A DNA stretch of 63,323 nt, filler included. It is 8 parts of 8 records of this genome, joined end to end, with 100 filler letters (N's around TTAATTAATTAA, not from the genome) between each part and the next. Parts side by side here need not be neighbours in the genome. Positions count along the whole stretch, not along the records: positions 28,895 to 36,181 come from SRR31156797_26454; 7 more parts are not named here. The stretch is one strand, 5' to 3'. A model generated the notes under the pieces. The model saw nothing but the letters and a program-made list of their open reading frames with translations, ran no database searches and was not told the DNA's origin. The translations under genes and the position numbers were made by a program. Shown piece after piece: positions 5,952 through 55,981 of this stretch; position 1 is the first letter of the stretch, and the number at the start of each line of letters is the position of its first letter.

Positions 5952-6051
5952 NNNNNNNNNNNNNNNNNNNNNNNNNNNNNNNNNNNNNNNNNNNNTTAAT
6001 TAATTAANNNNNNNNNNNNNNNNNNNNNNNNNNNNNNNNNNNNNNNNNNNN
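5952..6051. other. Artificial contig linker
   Basis: N44-TTAATTAATTAA-N44; stops in all six frames. Confidence 0.99.
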
Positions 6052-14937: not shown

Positions 14938-15037
14938 NNNNNNNNNNNNNNNNNNNNNNNNNNNNNNNNNNNNNNNNNNNNTTAATTAATTAANNNNNNN
15001 NNNNNNNNNNNNNNNNNNNNNNNNNNNNNNNNNNNNN
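14938..15037. other. Artificial contig linker
   Basis: N44-TTAATTAATTAA-N44. Confidence 0.99.
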
Positions 15038-28794: not shown

Positions 28795-28894
28795 NNNNNN
28801 NNNNNNNNNNNNNNNNNNNNNNNNNNNNNNNNNNNNNNTTAATTAATTAANNNNNNNNNNNNNNNNNNNNNNNNNNNNNNNNNNNNNNNNNNNN
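28795..28894. other. Artificial contig linker
   Basis: N44-TTAATTAATTAA-N44. Confidence 0.99.
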
Positions 28895-28955
28895 CATCTA
28901 CAGTGTAGCTAACATATTGAAGAACAAATATTTAGCGGTGTCGCCCACAACCGAA

Positions 28956-29036
28956 TCAAGCTTTGTTTCTTAGGAGCCGATTGGGAATTTCAAGGCCGTT
29001 AATGGTGATCGGCTCAAACAGCTTCTTGAACTCCAT
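28956..29036 (-). pseudogene. Truncated NADH:flavin oxidoreductase (old yellow enzyme family) N-terminus
   Basis: Manual translation gives MEFKKLFEPITINGLEIPNR-LLRNKA*, with a CAGGAG RBS. LFEPI.I..L.IPNR is the typical OYE start, but the frame stops after 26 codons. Confidence 0.7.
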
Positions 29037-29040
29037 TTTA

Positions 29041-30588
29041 TTACTCCTGGACCCCGGCCATTAACTCTTCCCGTATTTGCTGTTTCAAAACCTTCATCAA
29101 GGTGCTTTTGGGCAGTTCATTCAGGAATACAACCTTTTTGGGGCATTTGTACGAAGCCAGATCATTCTTGGCGAACTCAACGATCTCTTCTTCCGCAACT
29201 GTCTGACCGGGGGCAAGGACCACGGCCGCCGTCACAATCTCGCCCCAAACCTGGTCCGGAAGTCCGACAACGGCGGCCTCTGCTATCGCCGGGTGCTTTA
29301 TCAGGACGTTTTCTACTTCAGCCGCGTAAACGTTTTCGCCGCCGGAGATGATCATGTCCTTTTTTCTATCAACCAGATAGAGATACCCGTCTTCATCGAG
29401 CCGTCCCATGTCTCCGGTGTACAGCCAGCCGTTTCGCAAGGCCTCGTCAGCGGCCTCTTGATTTTTGTAGTAACCGGTCATAACGGCCGGGCCGTTGACT
29501 ACAACTTCGCCGATTGTCCCGGCGGGAACCTCCCTGCCGTTTTCGTCAAGCACGCGAATAATGTTATATGGCGCCGGTCTGCCGCAGCTTTCAGGACGCC
29601 CAGCCTTGCTATGAGAAGGCAGTACCGCGATCCATGGATTTTCTGTCTGGCCGAACACTTCAAACATGGTTATTTCAGGGAAATCGATCATGATCTGATT
29701 TCTCAAATCCACGGGCATGGGCGCTGCTGCCGAACCCCACATTCTCATGGAGCCGAGATCATATTCTCCGCTGACAGCTGTAGCGTGTATGAACAAAAAC
29801 ATCAAAGGAACGAAGAAGGAAAAGGTCAGCCGCTCCTTTTGAATGGCCTCCAGGCACTGGGCTGGATCAAAGCCTCGTAGCATAAATATAGTCGCGCCCT
29901 GGTTAAAGGCCCCCACCAGCGCGTCGTCCAGGGCGGCCACATGAAAGAGTGGTGCAGTCAACAGAACCCGGTCGTCCGCGGACATATTGAGCCCCATGCC
30001 GGCCATCGTGCTTGACCAGATCACCGCCTCGTGCGTTCGCCAAACGCCTTTGGGCATGCCGGTGGTCCCGCCGGTGAAAAGCATTTCGCATCCGTCACTG
30101 GATTTCACCTCGATTTGAGGCTCGTCGTCTATGTACTCAGCCATCAGGTCTTCATATAAAAGGCTTTGACCGACCGGCTCCTTACCATCGATGATATATT
30201 TTTGCACCTGGTGCAATTGGTTTGAGATGGAATCGACAATATCGGAAAACATATCCGAATAGATGAGAGCTTTGGAATCGGAAAAATGAATGAGCATCTG
30301 CAGCTCATTGGCTGACAGACGCCAGTTAAGAGAAACAGCCGCGGCCCCGATTTTTGAAACGGCGAAATAAGATTCCACGAATTGGTTGCAGTTCTGAAAA
30401 AGGAGACCGACTTTGTCTCCTTTTCCTATTCCAAGGTCCAGGAGGGCGTTGGCCAGTCGATTCACTCTTTGGTTGATTTGTCGGTAAGTGAATCTATGTC
30501 CTTCAAAGATCAAGGCTTCTTTATCCGGGTAATTCAGTGCGTTTCTCAATAACACGTTACCAACCGTCATTGCACTCAAATCTTGCAT
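29041..30588 (-). CDS. AMP-forming acyl/aryl-CoA ligase
   Basis: FTGGTTGMPKG, FGQTE, TGDMG, DRKKDMIISGGENVY motifs. Confidence 0.93.
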   Translation of the reverse strand: MQDLSAMTVGNVLLRNALNYPDKEALIFEGHRFTYRQINQRVNRLANALLDLGIGKGDKVGLLFQNCNQFVESYFAVSKIGAAAVSLNWRLSANELQMLIHFSDSKALIYSDMFSDIVDSISNQLHQVQKYIIDGKEPVGQSLLYEDLMAEYIDDEPQIEVKSSDGCEMLFTGGTTGMPKGVWRTHEAVIWSSTMAGMGLNMSADDRVLLTAPLFHVAALDDALVGAFNQGATIFMLRGFDPAQCLEAIQKERLTFSFFVPLMFLFIHATAVSGEYDLGSMRMWGSAAAPMPVDLRNQIMIDFPEITMFEVFGQTENPWIAVLPSHSKAGRPESCGRPAPYNIIRVLDENGREVPAGTIGEVVVNGPAVMTGYYKNQEAADEALRNGWLYTGDMGRLDEDGYLYLVDRKKDMIISGGENVYAAEVENVLIKHPAIAEAAVVGLPDQVWGEIVTAAVVLAPGQTVAEEEIVEFAKNDLASYKCPKKVVFLNELPKSTLMKVLKQQIREELMAGVQE

Positions 30589-30598
30589 TACTCACCCC

Positions 30599-32527
30599 TT
30601 ACGGTAAATCGTTTATCAACTTTTCCAATTTTAATTGGTTGAGCTTTTCCGAAGTCGGAACGCCTGTTTTGATATCCCAGCCCTTTTCGTCGTAGTAGTT
30701 GTCGAGAATCCCTTTGACGTCTTCCGGTAAAATACGTCCCTTTCGAAAGTAGTCCATGACCATGCGCGGTTCGCCCCCATCCAGACGTTTTAGCGGCTTG
30801 AACCATTTACGGGGAAAAGCGTCGTCTTTTCGATCGAATCCTTCCCTGACGTTAAGCATTTTATACAAGTTGTACGCGCGTTCGGCCGCTTCACGCAGTT
30901 CCTCGGGGCTGGTTTCAATCCCGGTAGCCGAGCTGTATAAATCGGCGCATACATCAATATTGAAAAGCCTTGAACTCTGCATTCGGAAACAAATTCCAAG
31001 CGAATTCAAAACCGTGGCCCAGTTCTCGTAATGGGCCAGCAGCCTGGCCGTATCAAAACCCGGTTCCACAAAGATTCTTTCCATCGAGCTTTCCGGGAAT
31101 CCCATCTTGGCGGCAACCTTCTTGAACCACCCAGCTTCCCGGCCCGGGGCCACTGTCAGGCCGCCGATGGGCATGTCGTGCGCTCCCCTGGGATTTGTCA
31201 CCTGGCCCAGCACCTCAACGCCGAAGGAAGCCCGGGCGTCAAAATCAGGTTCGGTTCCCTTGATGTGGTGGGCGTATTTTTCGCACCCGCGACCGATTTC
31301 CTTAATCGCCCCCAACCAGCCCCGGGACAGGATGCGGCCGAATCCCTGGTTGTCCTTGACCAGTTCCATGGCCCGGTCAAACGTCTCCAGGTCCGATTTC
31401 AATTCCAGACCACCGGTGTCTTCCCGAGTGATGATTCCCCGTTCGTAAAGCTCGACGGCAAAGTCCAGAACGGCAGGGAAGGTCATGTAATCAATGCCGT
31501 ATCGGTTAGCCCGGTCGAAAAATTCCACAGCCGTATTCATGTCTCGAGCGCCGAAACGAGAGGCCTGAAGCAACTCCATGGGCGTTGAGATATAGGTTTC
31601 TTTTCCATTGTTTTCAATTATCAGGACGCCCTTGTCCGCAGCCAGACAGGCCGGGCAGGAGATTGTCTTTTTTTTAACTTTCAAATATTCCTGTTGACCA
31701 AAGTTTTTATTGATCTCTTCATCCAGGGAACAAACGCTGTAGTTTTGTTCAATGATATGCCCGGCGCCTAACCAGACCGGAAGAACCGTAAAAAGGTGGA
31801 GTTGGGTCCACATCGGCCGTAAAGGGTCATCCCAGGCTTTGCCGTACAATCCGTCGACTACCTTCATAAACCTTTTTGGCTCGGCGGGGCTGAACCCGGC
31901 ATTACCTTTAATCACCACGGCTTTGAGGTTTTTCGATGCGAAATTCGCGGCGTTGCTCCGGCCGAAGGTGGAGCACTTATCAATCAAAATGATGGATGTA
32001 TATCCGAGGTTTTCGCCGGCCGGACCGATACAGGCGATACTGCAATGGGGGCTCCCGCCATGCCTGGCCTTCAGCCGGTCGGTTGCTTCATAGATATCCA
32101 GGCCCCACAGGTCGCCGGCGTCCCGCACCTCAACCTTGTCACCGGCGACGTACAAGTAGACCGGTTTATCGGCTTTGCCGTTCACGATAATATGCTCGTA
32201 CCCGGCCCACCTCATCGCCGGCCCGAAGTGGAGGCTGCCTACGGCCGTAGTGACCGTACCGGCAGCCGGGCACTTGGTTGTCAGAAAGCTTTTTGGAGTA
32301 CTGGGGCAGGCTGTACCATTAAGGACCCCAGCGCCGAAAATGATGGGCATATCCGGGGACAAGGCATCCATACCCGGCTTGATATGTTCATAAGCCAGTT
32401 TGGCGTTAAGCCCCCAACCGCCGATGAATTCCCTGGCGGTTTCCGACGCCAACGGTTCGGCCCGCGTCTCCCTGTCCGTCAGGTTTACGTGTAATATTTT
32501 TCCGAAATAACTTGAATCAGTTCCCAT
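30599..32527 (-). CDS. Aldehyde:ferredoxin oxidoreductase (AOR/WOR) family W/Mo-pterin enzyme, divergent
   Basis: GKILHVNLT, FIGGWG, CIGPAGE, SKNLKAV, RGAHD, SLGIC, NVREG..D..P motifs. Start moved to ATG 32527 (GGAGG RBS). Confidence 0.92.
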   Translation of the reverse strand: MGTDSSYFGKILHVNLTDRETRAEPLASETAREFIGGWGLNAKLAYEHIKPGMDALSPDMPIIFGAGVLNGTACPSTPKSFLTTKCPAAGTVTTAVGSLHFGPAMRWAGYEHIIVNGKADKPVYLYVAGDKVEVRDAGDLWGLDIYEATDRLKARHGGSPHCSIACIGPAGENLGYTSIILIDKCSTFGRSNAANFASKNLKAVVIKGNAGFSPAEPKRFMKVVDGLYGKAWDDPLRPMWTQLHLFTVLPVWLGAGHIIEQNYSVCSLDEEINKNFGQQEYLKVKKKTISCPACLAADKGVLIIENNGKETYISTPMELLQASRFGARDMNTAVEFFDRANRYGIDYMTFPAVLDFAVELYERGIITREDTGGLELKSDLETFDRAMELVKDNQGFGRILSRGWLGAIKEIGRGCEKYAHHIKGTEPDFDARASFGVEVLGQVTNPRGAHDMPIGGLTVAPGREAGWFKKVAAKMGFPESSMERIFVEPGFDTARLLAHYENWATVLNSLGICFRMQSSRLFNIDVCADLYSSATGIETSPEELREAAERAYNLYKMLNVREGFDRKDDAFPRKWFKPLKRLDGGEPRMVMDYFRKGRILPEDVKGILDNYYDEKGWDIKTGVPTSEKLNQLKLEKLINDLP

Positions 32528-32783
32528 CGCCGACCCCTCCCTGCTCTTTAATAACCAAGGCGCCGTAGGGACAATGCCGGGCGCAGACCAGGCACTGGTT
32601 GCAGTCCTCGGTGTAGCTGATATCAAAATCAAAGCCGTTCGCTTTCGGAACCACCCGGATGAACGCCTGGGCCGGTATAAAAGATTTTTGCCAGGTCATC
32701 GAGCACCTGATCTGACACGTCAGGCAGCCCGTGCAGTTTTCCGGATGCAAAACGACCCGGCTCGCATCTGAACTTAATGTCAT
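32517..32783 (-). CDS. Small 2x[4Fe-4S] protein, likely AOR partner
   Basis: CTGCLTCQIRC and CNQCLVCARHCP; overlaps the AOR start. Confidence 0.88.
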   Translation of the reverse strand: MTLSSDASRVVLHPENCTGCLTCQIRCSMTWQKSFIPAQAFIRVVPKANGFDFDISYTEDCNQCLVCARHCPYGALVIKEQGGVGDGN

Positions 32784-32802
32784 AGCTTTCTCCTTCCGGC
32801 TG

Positions 32803-33063
32803 TTACCAGGAATGGCTTATGGCCTTGTGTGAACAGACTTCCTCGCATTTGTAGCCACAGGTCCATCTGTCGCAGACGCCGCCAATCTGGTTAACCAGTT
32901 CGTCCCTTATTTTGGGAACGGTTTCGTCGTAATCGTCCAGAATCATTTCGATGACGCCATTGGGACATTCTTCCGCGCACTTGCCGCAGGCGTCGCATTT
33001 GTCCGTGTCAATGGTCACATAATATGATCCCGAACCATCCGCGTATCCGTAATTAGCCAGCAT
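32803..33063 (-). CDS. Ferredoxin, BzdM-like
   Basis: MLANYGYADGSGSYYVTIDTDKCDACGKCAEECP N-terminus and AISHSW C-terminus, as in ferredoxins of bzd-type reductase clusters. Confidence 0.82.
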   Translation of the reverse strand: MLANYGYADGSGSYYVTIDTDKCDACGKCAEECPNGVIEMILDDYDETVPKIRDELVNQIGGVCDRWTCGYKCEEVCSHKAISHSW

Positions 33064-33077
33064 TTTGTCACTCCTGG

Positions 33078-34424
33078 TCAGTTGGCCGCGGCAGCAGCCG
33101 AGGACTTCCGCGCTTTGAAGTCTTTACGTTTTTTAATCCTGCTAACCTGTTCCAGAAAAATTCTGATCTGCCGCCTGGCCGGGCCTTCAGAAAAGTCCCG
33201 AGGATCGGCCGGACTGCCTTCAAGCATCATGCCCGGCAGGCCCAACTCTTCCCGAAGAGTAAGTTTTTCGCCGAGCTCCCCATAGGAGACGCCCTTACAC
33301 CCTCTAACGGCATGCCAGACCGCGCCGTCAGCTTCCGCTTCCACAGCCAGCCGCTTAATCGCTTCGATCCCGGCGTCCAGGCGGGGCCGGCAATGCATGG
33401 CCACAATTCCTTTGGAAATCTCCCAAAGGCATTCGTCGATGTTGGCGGGTTCCTTCCATTCCTTAAACCAGGTTGGCGTCGTGTCTTTGCACCACTCGTA
33501 ACGTAAATCATGTCCCCACGTTTCAAGGTAGGGTGAGCCAACAAACGTAGCTCCGTGGGATTCAAAGTATTTCAAGACGCCCAGCGTATACCAACCGGGC
33601 TGGGCTTGCCACAGCAAGCGAATCTGCTCGTCTTCCAACCCTGACACGCCCTTTTCCACTCTCTCATGGAGTTCTTCAATCGCGGCTTCAAGCACGTCCC
33701 CGGCCGAGGGCCTAGTAGGCAGGGCGATGATCAGGTTTTCAAAGGTAAACAGGTTCCGGATAGTAATCGGGGATGGTTTTTTTCGCCACATGCGCATCAG
33801 GTCGTCCCAGAGGACTTCATTTCTATGCATGTTGATGGTCGCGTCAATCAACTTCTCCTCATTGACCTTCTGCCCAAGCGACCACTCCAGGAATTCGAGG
33901 CAGTTCCCGGCCTGAACGGCATAGTAGTCCACTGCATCCCGGACGGCCTCTTCATCCCAATTCTTCAGATCCTGAAATGGAACCAACGCAACGTCCAGTG
34001 TGAAAAACGGTGCGTTATGATACCGGGCCAGGGACTCGAACCACTTGGCCTGGACCACGCAGAGACCCTCTTGGCCAAGGACCGCGGCAGGCTTTGGGTA
34101 TTGACCGATAAAGCTCCGGCCTTCAATCATGGACCCCAGAGTCATTCTGGCGTAGGAACACAGTTCATGGGGGAAGCCGCACCGCTCGGCGGTTTCGCAG
34201 AAGCTGATCTCACGGACGAAACCGCATATTGATCCGTACCATTCCCCGGCGATATACACGGCGTCAAAGGCAGCGCCGATCTGGGGCGGAACCATGGCCG
34301 TGGCCATAATCACCGGCTTGCCGTCGGCCATGCCCTGCATGATATCGGCGTTATATGAATTGTTTACTTCCTTTAAAAACCCCCAGGTCTTCAAAGGAGG
34401 GCTCTTTCTTTCCTTGCGTTTCAT
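33078..34424 (-). CDS. Class I aryl-CoA reductase / 2-hydroxyacyl-CoA dehydratase family subunit, BzdO-like
   Basis: PLKTW N-terminus, GEWYG, ELCSYAR, KWFE, HAVRGCKG, EGSPADPRDF. Confidence 0.8.
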   Translation of the reverse strand: MKRKERKSPPLKTWGFLKEVNNSYNADIMQGMADGKPVIMATAMVPPQIGAAFDAVYIAGEWYGSICGFVREISFCETAERCGFPHELCSYARMTLGSMIEGRSFIGQYPKPAAVLGQEGLCVVQAKWFESLARYHNAPFFTLDVALVPFQDLKNWDEEAVRDAVDYYAVQAGNCLEFLEWSLGQKVNEEKLIDATINMHRNEVLWDDLMRMWRKKPSPITIRNLFTFENLIIALPTRPSAGDVLEAAIEELHERVEKGVSGLEDEQIRLLWQAQPGWYTLGVLKYFESHGATFVGSPYLETWGHDLRYEWCKDTTPTWFKEWKEPANIDECLWEISKGIVAMHCRPRLDAGIEAIKRLAVEAEADGAVWHAVRGCKGVSYGELGEKLTLREELGLPGMMLEGSPADPRDFSEGPARRQIRIFLEQVSRIKKRKDFKARKSSAAAAAN

Positions 34425-34459
34425 TTTGGTCTCCTTTTCCGTGGTTCAAGGAAGCTCTC

Positions 34460-35734
34460 TTATAAGGCCAGGGCCTCTCTGGCGTCTGGTTCCAAAACGT
34501 AATCAACCGGATGAAGCATCTCCAGGAAAGCCTGGACGCGAGTCTTGATCTGTCCGACCGAGATGATGTTGTCCACTTCCAGGAACAAGGATGGGACCCC
34601 GATTTGATTAAAAGCCTGGGCGACGTGATGATAATCAAAGCCGTGAGGGTCGCAGAACTTCTGGATCAAGGCCACTACGCCTTCGACCTTGTGGTCGATG
34701 GCCAACTGCAGGGCGTGTCGAAAGCGGCATATTCTTTCCGGATTGTTAATGGATGTTTCAGGTCTCCTTGCCTTTGGGCTCGGTTTCAAGGAGAAACATT
34801 CGACGTCCCGGAAAGGACAGGATGTGCATTCCAACCATCTGGACGGCGAGTGTTTTGACGGGCAGGGAGGCCGGGAGACAAGATACCTCTGGACCAGAGC
34901 CTCCAAAGGATCATCCATCCCCCCCGGGGTTTCGCCCATGATATACCTGGTGGAAGTGCACGTGTCGTCGGTGACCACATCAGCGCCCAGGTCATCCTCT
35001 ATCAGGTCCAGGAGTTTCAAATTGTCGAGCGGGCTGCCGACGATCATTACCCTGGTCGAGCCTGTCCGGCGCTCTTTTCGAGCAGGGAGTTTTTCCAACA
35101 ATTCCTTTAATCGGGCATTATGATCGGCCTTGTCGGTCAGCATCCCGGAAAGTGTTATCAGAAAGGCCTCTTTGCCGCTTATAAGCGGCGGCGCCGCTAT
35201 ACGCGTCCTGAATATCTCCCTGGTCAGAGCCCGGTTCTCATCATAAACGTCTATGGCCGCCCACAAGTCGTCGTCGGTGACGGCCCGACCGGAAAGGTCC
35301 TCCATGTCTTTCCTGAATCTGGCCAGTTCGTTGTAAAAGTATTTCTTGGCTTCCGGGGCGTCAATCAGGCCTGGTGTGTAAATAAACCTGTTGAAAGGAA
35401 TATTCGCGGCCATTTGCAGGTTGTCAAAGGCCAACCTCATGGTGGTGCAGGAATATCCGCTGACCAGCCCGTCCATGCTCTTGAAGTCGCCCTGAAGGCC
35501 CTGATGAAGGATGCTCCTGGCAAACGTGCAATAGTAGCTCTGCATATAATTATCGCTGAGGGTTGGGGCTTCTTCGTTTGATAAAATCCTTATCGGGACG
35601 TATCCCGCGGCGTAAATAATCTCCTCCGGAACGTAACTGCAGAGATAACCGATCGTCCCTTTTTGCGTCTCCCGTCTTATCAGGCGTGACCGGTCGGCCC
35701 TGCTTTCGACGATTTCCTCAAAATGAGTGAACAT
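34460..35734 (-). CDS. Class I aryl-CoA reductase / 2-hydroxyacyl-CoA dehydratase family subunit, BzdN-like
   Basis: GYLCSYVPEEIIYAAG, YCTFAR, DDTCT, RPPCPSK, QKFCDPH, GQIKTRVQAFLE. Confidence 0.83.
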   Translation of the reverse strand: MFTHFEEIVESRADRSRLIRRETQKGTIGYLCSYVPEEIIYAAGYVPIRILSNEEAPTLSDNYMQSYYCTFARSILHQGLQGDFKSMDGLVSGYSCTTMRLAFDNLQMAANIPFNRFIYTPGLIDAPEAKKYFYNELARFRKDMEDLSGRAVTDDDLWAAIDVYDENRALTREIFRTRIAAPPLISGKEAFLITLSGMLTDKADHNARLKELLEKLPARKERRTGSTRVMIVGSPLDNLKLLDLIEDDLGADVVTDDTCTSTRYIMGETPGGMDDPLEALVQRYLVSRPPCPSKHSPSRWLECTSCPFRDVECFSLKPSPKARRPETSINNPERICRFRHALQLAIDHKVEGVVALIQKFCDPHGFDYHHVAQAFNQIGVPSLFLEVDNIISVGQIKTRVQAFLEMLHPVDYVLEPDAREALAL

Positions 35735-35745
35735 GACCTTTTCTC

Positions 35746-36181
35746 CTAACCGTCGCCTTTTATCTTCAGCAGCGCGTCCTTGGCGAAAACGGCCGCGCCT
35801 AGCGCACCAATAATCTGAGGCTCCTCGTAAATAAAGGCCGTAAGGCCCAACCTCTCTTCCACTCGTTTTGCGACGCCCTTGTTTTTAGCGATGCCGCCGG
35901 AGATGACCAGCTCCTCTTCTACCTTTGACCGCCCCATCAGGCTTAAAACCCTACTGGTCAGGGCCTCACATGCGCCAGCCAGAATATCGTTCTTATTTAC
36001 GCCGTTTCTCGAAAGCTCCAAAACCTCCGAACGGGCGAACAAGACGCACGTGCTGGTGATCGGGGCCGCCTCTTTCTCTATTTGAAAGGACAAATCGCCC
36101 ACGTCTTCCAAAGGCAGTCCAACCAGCTTGGCCATAACCTCCATTGAACGGCCCGCACCGGCCGCGCATTTGTCGTTCATG
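35746..36181 (-). CDS. ATP-dependent activase subunit (BzdQ/BcrA/HgdC family), 5'-truncated
   Basis: MNDKCAAGAGR, STCVLFARSE, SGGIAKN, PQIIGALGAA motifs of ASKHA-type activases. Confidence 0.9.
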
Positions 36182-36281
36182 NNNNNNNNNNNNNNNNNNN
36201 NNNNNNNNNNNNNNNNNNNNNNNNNTTAATTAATTAANNNNNNNNNNNNNNNNNNNNNNNNNNNNNNNNNNNNNNNNNNNN
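36182..36281. other. Artificial contig linker
   Basis: N44-TTAATTAATTAA-N44. Confidence 0.99.
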
Positions 36282-41967: not shown

Positions 41968-42067
41968 NNNNNNNNNNNNNNNNNNNNNNNNNNNNNNNNN
42001 NNNNNNNNNNNTTAATTAATTAANNNNNNNNNNNNNNNNNNNNNNNNNNNNNNNNNNNNNNNNNNNN
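41968..42067. other. Artificial contig linker
   Basis: N44-TTAATTAATTAA-N44. Confidence 0.99.
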
Positions 42068-49270: not shown

Positions 49271-49370
49271 NNNNNNNNNNNNNNNNNNNNNNNNNNNNNN
49301 NNNNNNNNNNNNNNTTAATTAATTAANNNNNNNNNNNNNNNNNNNNNNNNNNNNNNNNNNNNNNNNNNNN
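49271..49370. other. Artificial contig linker
   Basis: N44-TTAATTAATTAA-N44. Confidence 0.99.
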
Positions 49371-55881: not shown

Positions 55882-55981
55882 NNNNNNNNNNNNNNNNNNN
55901 NNNNNNNNNNNNNNNNNNNNNNNNNTTAATTAATTAANNNNNNNNNNNNNNNNNNNNNNNNNNNNNNNNNNNNNNNNNNNN
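55882..55981. other. Artificial contig linker
   Basis: N44-TTAATTAATTAA-N44. Confidence 0.99.

Follow-up and report, generated by a model that had tools for sequence, protein, structure and literature searches.

What do eight closely packed genes on a short sediment-metagenome contig encode together: one anaerobic pathway that reduces aromatic rings, or a reductase of a new kind with other enzymes placed beside it? The window (the whole stretch of DNA that was analysed, 63,323 nucleotides) holds the locus as one entire contig at 28895-36181 (7,287 bp, GC content about 46-59% in 500-bp steps), on which eight open reading frames (ORFs) run head to tail, all on the minus strand. In gene order they encode a fragment of a BzdQ-like ATPase, an N-like and an O-like subunit (N and O below), a ferredoxin, a small protein with two [4Fe-4S] clusters, an AOR-family pterin enzyme, an acyl-CoA ligase and a very short ORF whose beginning resembles old yellow enzyme (OYE). 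The reading that we favour, with a probability of roughly 60%, is that N and O are a CoA-ester reductase that needs ATP, is fed by ferredoxin and would represent a new clade beside the Bzd type with an added cysteine-rich element at its double cubane and a remodelled active site.

Both subunits belong to family PF06050. N (34460-35734, minus strand; 424 aa), predicted to store electrons at a double-cubane [8Fe-9S] site, gives 238.7 bits with the NCBIfam model TIGR03190 BzdN, followed by HadC (170.8, cut-off 700), the double_cubane model of double-cubane cluster proteins (DCCPs; 165.2) and BcrC (118.8). Its matches in the Protein Data Bank (PDB) are led by BzdN 8s02_B (232.6 bits), with HadC at 142.7, MbdN at 76.3 and DCCP at 64. 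The AlphaFold2 (AF2) model of N (pLDDT 88.3) has the same BzdN chain as its top Foldseek match, with a target-normalised TM-score of 0.95, an rmsd of 1.8 and about 32% identity in the structural match; DCCP structures fit the model with a TM-score of 0.79. O (33078-34424, minus strand; 448 aa), predicted to be the catalytic partner that carries a [4Fe-4S] cluster and the CoA-ester site, gives 164.6 bits with TIGR03191 BzdO and 135.4 with HadB (cut-off 750), and in the PDB 160.5 with BzdO 8s02_A, 110.7 with HadB and 54.5 with MbdO. The ATPase fragment (BcrAD/BadFG-type; 35746-36181, minus strand), of which the C-terminal 144 residues are present and the 5' end is lost at the contig end, matches PF01869 (2.4e-24, profile positions 133-271) and has TIGR03192 BzdQ as its top NCBIfam match. 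These NCBIfam and PDB scores bear out a preliminary description of the locus, which had placed N, O and the ATPase Q in the superfamily of class I benzoyl-CoA reductases (BCR) and 2-hydroxyacyl-CoA dehydratases (HAD), closest to the Bzd type.

In N, C32, C69, C96, C259, C291 and C361 are invariant in 53/53 aligned sequences and correspond to those that the BzdN and DCCP rows have in common in Suppl. Fig. 11 of PMC11971306; the HAD beta subunits shown in that figure lack the DDxC and CPTK cysteines, both of which N has. Between the CPxK motif of N and the next helix lies an insert of ~38 residues (~298-336; 34727-34843, minus strand) with four extra cysteines. It is specific to the clade of N, being present in 36/36 clade rows and in 0/17 of the other Bzd/Bcr-like rows among the 53, and C303, C306 and C336 are conserved in 36/36 clade rows and C313 in 31/36. 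For further comparison we used the published alignments in the supplement of PMC11971306, which hold 13 N-type and 12 O-type reference proteins; none of the 13 BcrC/BzdN-type rows shown there, ThncrN included, carries the insert. The insert lies in the loop lining the double-cubane cavity, where it could provide an extra metal site.

In BzdO numbering, used throughout for O, the subunit retains Cys95, Cys128, Cys380, Glu65, Tyr97, Gln274, Tyr298 and Leu302. The thioester clamp (Tyr97, Tyr298 and Gln274) and the pocket residue Leu302 are thus kept, Gln274 being the residue of the Bzd type where HAD rows have Ile. Five other positions are substituted (Ser44Thr, Trp46Met, His131Gln, Glu381Lys and Leu383Val), and this pattern is common to the four rows of the inner clade, namely the query, P0241 and the O subunits of two related loci, L012 and L013. 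According to PMC11971306, Trp46 and the benzoyl ring occupy in BzdO the space of a lost sub-cluster, so that Met46 of O should enlarge the pocket. The changed pocket (His131Gln, Trp46Met, Leu383Val and Glu381Lys) suggests a substrate different from benzoyl-CoA, or a different path of proton delivery.

Close relatives of both subunits are few and sharply set off. A search of 5.8 billion proteins with N returned one 98% twin and then ~33 full-length clusters at 53-67% identity (419-433 aa), below which identity falls sharply to 39% or less in proteins of 366-404 aa. With O, a search of a 1.84-billion representative library (50% clustering) gave 998 matches, only four of which are full-length and at least 37% identical (66, 45, 46 and 37%), the others reaching at most 33%. 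Of the 150 matches listed, 115 were labelled by NCBIfam; three of these pass the BzdO cut-off, 11 are BzdO-like below it, one (P0357) passes HadB and one is HadB-like. In the Atlas, the nearest cluster (427 aa, 259 members) has Chloroflexota as the commonest among 63 members of known phylum, and clade member P0007 is named as a protein of a Desulfatiglans sp. metagenome-assembled genome (MAG). The contigs on which P0007 and a further relative, P0006, lie are 109,533 and 39,691 bp long. A scan of genome contigs found only distant relatives (36% identity or less). As a separate observation, the order of G003 and G004 (G405-G412; 10 reference genomes of 3-5.5 Mb) is rich in BCR/HAD-family paralogues, with 4-27 first-look N-like candidates and several AOR-family genes per genome.

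Trees were built for both subunits; they are unrooted and cover rows without Bcr-type, Thn, Hgd or Fld sequences. For O, the same clade of seven (support 100*), made up of the query, L012, L013 and four representatives, appears in a 143-row FastTree and in an IQ-TREE tree that applies a mixture model to 50 of those rows. In the FastTree a starred split separates this clade, together with the Bzd side, from 96 HadB-side rows; in the IQ-TREE result a set of 31 rows (100*) consists of the clade of seven (100*), a 20-row Bzd-like group (100*) and four loose rows. All three rows that exceed the BzdO cut-off fall in the 20-row group, and the O clade lies outside it. The N tree, built by FastTree from 116 rows, contains a clade of 36 (100*) that is joined at support 99 by eight rows, three of which pass the BzdN cut-off. 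From these positions N is a close sister of canonical BzdN, and the catalytic subunit O is much further diverged. The clade therefore does not group with the 2-hydroxyacyl-CoA dehydratases and does not sit within canonical BzdO, outcomes that the preliminary description had left to a phylogeny. Judged by sequence, N and O form a separate, uncharacterised clade next to the Bzd type.

The arrangement of genes around N and O in relatives is that of a reductase. In L013 (10.8 kb), whose N is 63% identical, the order is a short-chain dehydrogenase/reductase (SDR), DUF1295, a periplasmic binding protein, two ATPases, N, O, ferredoxin, another SDR and an enoyl-CoA hydratase; the first ATPase scores best with a dehydratase-activase model and the second with BzdQ, and the downstream SDR and enoyl-CoA hydratase are as in ring-reduction pathways. 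The fragment on our contig aligns at 72% identity with residues 127-265 of the L013 ATPase adjacent to N, which means that about 126 N-terminal residues lie beyond the contig end; the contig of run X1 itself (9,429 bp) extends 2.1 kb further on that side. In L012 (N 77% identical) the order is N split in two ORFs, ferredoxin, O and then unrelated genes. The split N-like gene of L012 (ORFs 80-754 and 767-1363; L012:80-1363) reflects a frameshift or stop, or a sequencing error, and the ferredoxin of this locus sits between N and O and not after O. The 86-aa ferredoxin with two Cys clusters (Fer4 families; 32803-33063, minus strand) has orthologues near N and O in both, with 71% (L012) and 58% (L013) identity. 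The reductase core (P, Q, N, O and ferredoxin) thus recurs in relatives, and from these layouts and the orthologous ferredoxin it consists of two ATPases, N, O and the ferredoxin, a layout of the reductase type. Neither an AOR nor a ligase lies near the core in L012 or L013.

The next genes of the locus belong to a different assemblage. The AOR-family enzyme (30599-32527, minus strand; 642 aa from the ATG at 32527) contains both family domains (PF02730, 4.2e-58; PF01314, 7.8e-60), and against the PDB it is nearly equidistant from AORs (187-213 bits), FOR (177) and BamB (175.5). Its close family comprises 73 full-length clusters with at least 44% identity, several of them from named Chloroflexota, Dehalococcoidia or Thermodesulfobacteriota MAGs. 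Its cluster motif, CPACLAAD, follows the pattern CxxCxxxD with a fourth Cys in 73/73 clade rows, placing Asp at the third ligand position, and the enzyme is indeed the atypical AOR that had been claimed at the outset. Among 44 more distant relatives the patterns are DxxCxxxC (22), CxxCxxxD (12), the canonical CxxCxxxC (9) and GxxCxxxD (1). A second non-canonical pattern is seen in P0207-P0239 (38-41% identity, ~654 aa), where the first cluster Cys is replaced by Asp (DxxCxxxC).

At the place where PfAOR Glu313, which we take to be an active-site residue, and BamB Cys322, presumably a tungsten ligand, align, the enzyme has Pro or Thr, the pairwise alignment being weak there. The column aligned to BamB His260 holds His in 26/73 clade rows, and the His of the NPRGAH motif aligns with PfAOR His448. 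A Pfam scan of the contig found no BamC-I partner genes. A BamB-like reading of the enzyme was considered and, for now, rejected, given the lack of Cys at the aligned ligand place, the occurrence of His in only 26/73 rows and a BamB score no higher than those of AORs.

Outside this contig the AOR clade was found in 4 of 301 genomes from the class of a Dehalococcoidales MAG, the same 301 genomes giving 0 matches for N. Small Fer4 genes lie beside the AOR-clade gene in L043 and L041, and their products are 46% and 35% identical, respectively, to the 88-aa 2x[4Fe-4S] protein of our locus (Fer4 dicluster families; 32517-32783, minus strand), whose gene overlaps the AOR start by 11 nt; this protein is probably the small electron-transfer partner of the AOR. 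An enoyl-CoA hydratase gene is near the AOR-clade gene in three of the four loci (L041, L042 and L044); two family III CoA-transferases and an FAD/FeS protein are also encoded at L044, and L043 has an SDR. From these Dehalococcoidia-class loci, the AOR and its small FeS partner are an independent module that tends to adjoin CoA-ester enzymes. In L041 (5866-18032) and L042 (2653-10105) the AOR-clade gene and the enoyl-CoA hydratase gene lie inside CO dehydrogenase/acetyl-CoA synthase (CODH/ACS, Wood-Ljungdahl) clusters, which include CdhD, a RACo activase, a pterin-binding protein and a CooC-like ATPase. In the 2026 classification of tungsten oxidoreductases, as described in PMC13328260, a defined physiological role is given for only five of 92 clades, and Geobacter benzoyl-CoA reductase is the sole family member with non-aldehyde activity; a clade with an invariant CxxCxxxD motif joins the many clades of these enzymes without a known role.

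The last two genes are a ligase and a stub. The acyl-CoA ligase (29041-30588, minus strand; 515 aa, PF00501 and PF13193) exceeds the cut-off of NCBIfam PRK06187 (492.6 against 476), and its best PDB matches are FadD5, a fatty-acyl/feruloyl-CoA synthetase and FadD13. Its relatives among the matches listed are a 97% twin on a 27.5-kb contig, five full-length proteins at 53-61% identity and then one step down to 45%. It is FadD-like and not of the PaaK-like type of the ligases of polycyclic aromatic hydrocarbon (PAH) degradation, to which the known naphthoate and phenanthroate ligases described in PMC12016498 belong. The OYE-like ORF (28956-29036, minus strand) has 26 codons, of which the first 20 are unique and resemble an OYE N-terminus, the remaining six and the stop lying within a repeat. 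Pfam gave no match for the 26-residue peptide; its five PDB matches are all N-termini of OYE-type flavin oxidoreductases, at non-significant E values of 0.3-0.55, so that its identity as OYE is suggestive but not significant. Being a 20-codon stub that ends in a repeat, it cannot be counted as an OYE enzyme of the operon.

The repeat (28895-28976, ~80 bp, of unclassified type) forms the contig end and is multicopy: at ~90% identity it also occurs in further contigs of both runs, at least four in X1 and three in X2. The depth of the repeat-bearing contigs is 43.7-51.2, that of the locus-bearing contigs 44 and 49.8. In three of these seven records the repeat is no more than about 90 bases from a record end, and loose ends begin at 28976. 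The end of an insertion sequence (IS), a miniature inverted-repeat transposable element (MITE) and a repetitive extragenic palindromic (REP) element are the candidate types. No Rfam model matched 28895-28976, and neither the rest of the window nor the fetched loci contained another copy. An IS end and a group II intron were both considered, and neither is supported.

The order of the genes is genuine. A 27,508-bp contig from run X2, which belongs to another study, is collinear over 28945-36181 at 95% identity (336 differences, 4 gaps) and reaches 9.2 kb past the repeat and 11 kb upstream; this independent contig rules out an assembly chimera as the source of the order. The spacing in gene order is 11, 35, 14 and 19 nt, an 11-nt overlap, 10 and 4 nt, so the tight codirectional packing of eight genes in the order first described was seen again, with 35 nt as the largest gap. 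The families first assigned to them were confirmed by Pfam and NCBIfam for all but the OYE, which lacks a Pfam match and drops out as an operon member. Conservation of the whole combination was not borne out, since the core occurs without AOR and ligase near it in L013 and L012, and the AOR with its small FeS partner occurs alone in Dehalococcoidia-class genomes without an N-like match.

Several observations weigh against reading N and O as a reductase related to the Bzd type. Both subunits stay well below the cut-offs of the models that they match best (238.7 against 453.8 bits for BzdN and 164.6 against 448.6 for BzdO), a divergence already noticed in the preliminary description. AF2 confidence in the insert of N is low (pLDDT 45-62), and the case for any metal site there is therefore made by cysteine conservation alone. 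The contig carries only one ATPase gene, truncated and Q-like, and no second. In PMC11971306, BzdO is described as holding its catalytic water at the aqua-[4Fe-4S] cluster by Glu65 and His131, and His131 is Gln in the inner clade; in the alignment published there, the four Bzd-type rows, including ThncrO, have His131 and Cys-Glu, and the four dehydratase rows have Lys at 381 and Val or Met at 131. Lys381 and Thr44 of O are also found in P0357, the sole row over the HadB cut-off. With Gln131, Lys381 and Thr44, dehydratase-like or other chemistry is possible for O. A search for N-like proteins in 1,113 sampled reference genomes (401 + 10 + 301 + 401; threshold E<=1e-80) found the clade in 0/401 genomes of the phylum of the Syntrophales MAG, in 0/10, in 0/301 of the class of the Dehalococcoidales MAG and in 0/401 of its phylum, an empty result that, as these searches had no positive control, is informative neither way. 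The linkage of the AOR to the core recurs only in the 95%-identical contig. Linkage of the ligase to the core outside that contig is suggested by one coincidence alone: for the N-like protein P0014 (63% identical) and the ligase P0396 (53%) the longest contig is given as 31,667 bp in either case, with identical sources, a hint that the two may also go together in more distant relatives.

Could the eight genes then be one dearomatisation pathway for a (hetero/poly)aromatic aldehyde or acid, as first proposed? In that scheme the AOR would make the acid and the ligase the aryl-CoA, and the rings would be reduced stepwise by OYE and the class I enzyme, as happens in naphthalene degraders. The tight co-directional packing with one overlap fits a single transcript, and the collinearity is reproduced in an independent assembly. 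The substitutions Trp46Met and Leu383Val should enlarge the pocket, AOR-clade genes elsewhere adjoin CoA-ester genes (enoyl-CoA hydratase in 3/4 loci, CoA-transferases in 1/4), and the ligase is probably on the same contig as the N-like gene in the 63%-identical relative (P0014/P0396). In N47 and NaphS2, according to PMC12016498, class I-like reductase genes also have OYE genes and ferredoxins nearby. However, L013 and L012 have neither AOR nor ligase beside the core, Dehalococcoidia-class genomes contain the AOR module without a match to the N-like clade, and the OYE is a stub. The AOR moreover lacks a Cys aligned to the presumed ligand Cys322 of BamB. The ligase is FadD-like and not PaaK-like (the type described in PMC12016498), and the N47 rows of tetrahydronaphthoyl-CoA reductase (THNCR) in PMC11971306 have no insert and keep His131 and the Cys-Glu-Gly (CEG) motif. 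We regard this single pathway as unlikely, and the route from aromatic aldehyde to acid, aryl-CoA and ring reduction as plausible but unproven.

Less likely still is that N and O are an ATP-activated radical dehydratase similar to 2-hydroxyacyl-CoA dehydratases, with the ATPase as a mere catalytic activator. The Pfam family is named HGD-D, HadB and HadC rank second in both the NCBIfam and the PDB results, the first ATPase of L013 prefers the dehydratase-activase model, and O shares Lys381 and Thr44 with P0357 and lacks His131. Against these stand the trees, in which the starred split keeps the clade with the Bzd side and apart from the HadB side, the complete double-cubane set of six Cys in N, which HAD beta subunits miss, the Bzd-type Gln274 where HAD rows have Ile, and the two distinct ATPase genes and dedicated ferredoxin of L013.

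The weakest alternative, that the clade is a heterodimeric relative of DCCPs which reduces a small non-CoA substrate next to CoA genes that are there by coincidence, is highly improbable: N does score 165.2 bits with the double_cubane model, DCCP structures are good fold matches (TM-score 0.79) and the Cys-rich insert could alter the cluster chemistry of N, but O retains the CoA-thioester contacts Tyr97, Tyr298 and Gln274 and the three-Cys catalytic cluster, the neighbours are CoA-ester enzymes (SDR and enoyl-CoA hydratase in L013, the ligase here), and DCCPs are described in PMC11971306 as homodimers.

A CoA-ester reductase of a clade beside the Bzd type remains the reading that we prefer, and a mechanism can be proposed for it by homology with BzdNOPQ. 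The 86-aa ferredoxin would reduce the two-subunit ATPase; driven by ATP hydrolysis, low-potential electrons would enter the [8Fe-9S] double cubane in N and move on to a water-bearing [4Fe-4S] cluster of O. An acyl- or aryl-CoA held in O by the Tyr/Tyr/Gln thioester clamp would then be reduced, with the conserved Glu as the putative proton donor. The direction of the reaction as a reduction, the class of substrate and a metal in the insert are each suggested by these comparisons. The small 2x[4Fe-4S] protein, the AOR and the FadD-like ligase would constitute a separate, mobile module, which in this lineage may feed the reductase by converting an aldehyde to the acid, forming the CoA ester and reducing ferredoxin; such coupling of the AOR module and the ligase to the reductase is no more than inferred.

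On the boldest reading, the contig would represent a new subfamily of ATP-driven, 'Birch-type' reductases in which N gains a third metal centre through its Cys4 insert and, in O, Gln replaces the His that holds the water. In this lineage the reductase would be coupled to a tungsten enzyme with an Asp ligand, the whole being a self-contained module leading from an aldehyde to a reduced ring. We think it doubtful that all of this holds at once. If it did, aldehyde oxidation would yield both the acid for CoA activation and low-potential ferredoxin, and in strictly anoxic sediments the module would act on a cyclic substrate that has yet to be identified. In any case the clade is a natural experiment on the class I mechanism, with the double cubane kept, a Cys-rich insert added and the catalytic-water residues altered, and a candidate for still unassigned ring-reducing steps of larger or substituted aromatics. 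As recounted in PMC11971306, class I reductases were once thought typical of facultative anaerobes, and their mechanism was structurally resolved only in 2025. A practical limit is that the locus is a 7.3-kb metagenome fragment with two truncated genes.

The rest of the window has no bearing on the locus. The window consists of eight contigs joined by seven linkers, each 44 N + TTAATTAATTAA + 44 N, at 5952-6051, 14938-15037, 28795-28894, 36182-36281, 41968-42067, 49271-49370 and 55882-55981; the artificial linkers at 28795-28894 and 36182-36281 (neither assigned to a strand) flank the locus. GC content ranges from about 24% to 60% across the eight contigs. As the eight pieces are unrelated, the context of the locus was restricted to 28895-36181, and findings that span linkers or use neighbours across them are unsafe. 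The end of the left-hand contig (26113-28740) encodes a YifB/ComM-type Mg-chelatase-like ATPase as well as a protein whose C-terminus is a Por/T9SS sorting domain, has a GC content of about 35-43% and comes from an organism that differs from that of the locus contig. The right-hand contig (36282-41967, minus strand; GC about 57%) is a bacterial microcompartment (BMC) locus unrelated to ours, with two BMC-domain shell proteins, three EutN/CcmL vertex proteins, an aldehyde dehydrogenase, an acetate kinase and an RpiB/LacAB-like protein.

Comparison with known systems sets the parts of the locus in order. Like the AORs (1AOR, 9MQX and 9G7J) and BamB (4Z3W), the AOR-family enzyme has the two AFOR Pfam domains and the fourth cluster Cys; unlike them it has Asp as the third ligand and Pro or Thr at the Glu313/Cys322 place, and it is not accompanied by BamC-I genes. 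A small FeS partner gene beside the AOR is as in the 'WorL + WorS' classes described in PMC13328260, although this partner has two clusters and not three or four. N and O resemble HadBC (3O3M) and other 2-hydroxyacyl-CoA dehydratases in the fold of the superfamily, in Glu65 and in the three-Cys catalytic cluster, and O shares Lys381 with dehydratase rows and Thr44 with P0357. In contrast, the HAD beta subunit is without the cysteines of the second cubane, the trees separate the groups, and the scores remain far from the cut-offs (HadB 135 against 750, HadC 171 against 700).

BzdNOPQ of Aromatoleum/Azoarcus sp. CIB (8S02, 8S1T and 8S2R; PMC11971306) is the best sequence match for N and O and the best fold match for N. 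The six cysteines of N, the three cluster Cys of O, Glu65, Tyr97, Gln274, Tyr298 and Leu302, a Q-like ATPase and a dedicated ferredoxin are common to both systems. Unlike BzdNOPQ, both subunits of the locus are far under the equivalog cut-offs, O lies outside the 20-row Bzd-like group and carries its five substitutions (44, 46, 131, 381 and 383), and N has the 38-residue Cys4 insert.

THNCR of N47 and NaphS2 is likewise class I, Bzd-related and ATP-dependent, comes from a strict anaerobe and has an adjacent ferredoxin, and OYE genes lie near THNCR-type genes in both genomes according to PMC12016498, in which the THNCR gene assignment rests on cell-extract assays. The comparison with THNCR is read from rows of the alignment published in PMC11971306 and not from a tree: there, ThncrN of N47 has 376 aa and no insert, and ThncrO has His131, the Cys-Glu-Gly motif and Glu at position 46. 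The order in the thn operon, as published, is N, O, two ATPases and ferredoxin, unlike that of the locus and L013, where ATPases precede N, O and ferredoxin. A link of the locus to naphthalene-type chemistry, as suggested in the preliminary description, is accordingly weak, ThncrN being without the insert and ThncrO keeping the His131 and Cys-Glu-Gly that O lacks.

A nearer counterpart in layout is the second THNCR-like cluster of candidate Desulfatiglans TRIP_1 (PITCH_v1_a1180010-14), compared here by gene order only from its description in PMC6849830. Its neighbours are an amidohydrolase and a hydroxyacyl-CoA dehydrogenase, unlike the AOR and ligase of the locus, and its O subunit is only 34-36% identical to the THNCRs of N47 and NaphS2. 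This cluster, which is expressed on phenanthrene, has the same annotated order as the core, namely an activase-like ATPase, a BzdQ-like ATPase, N (gamma), O (beta) and ferredoxin.

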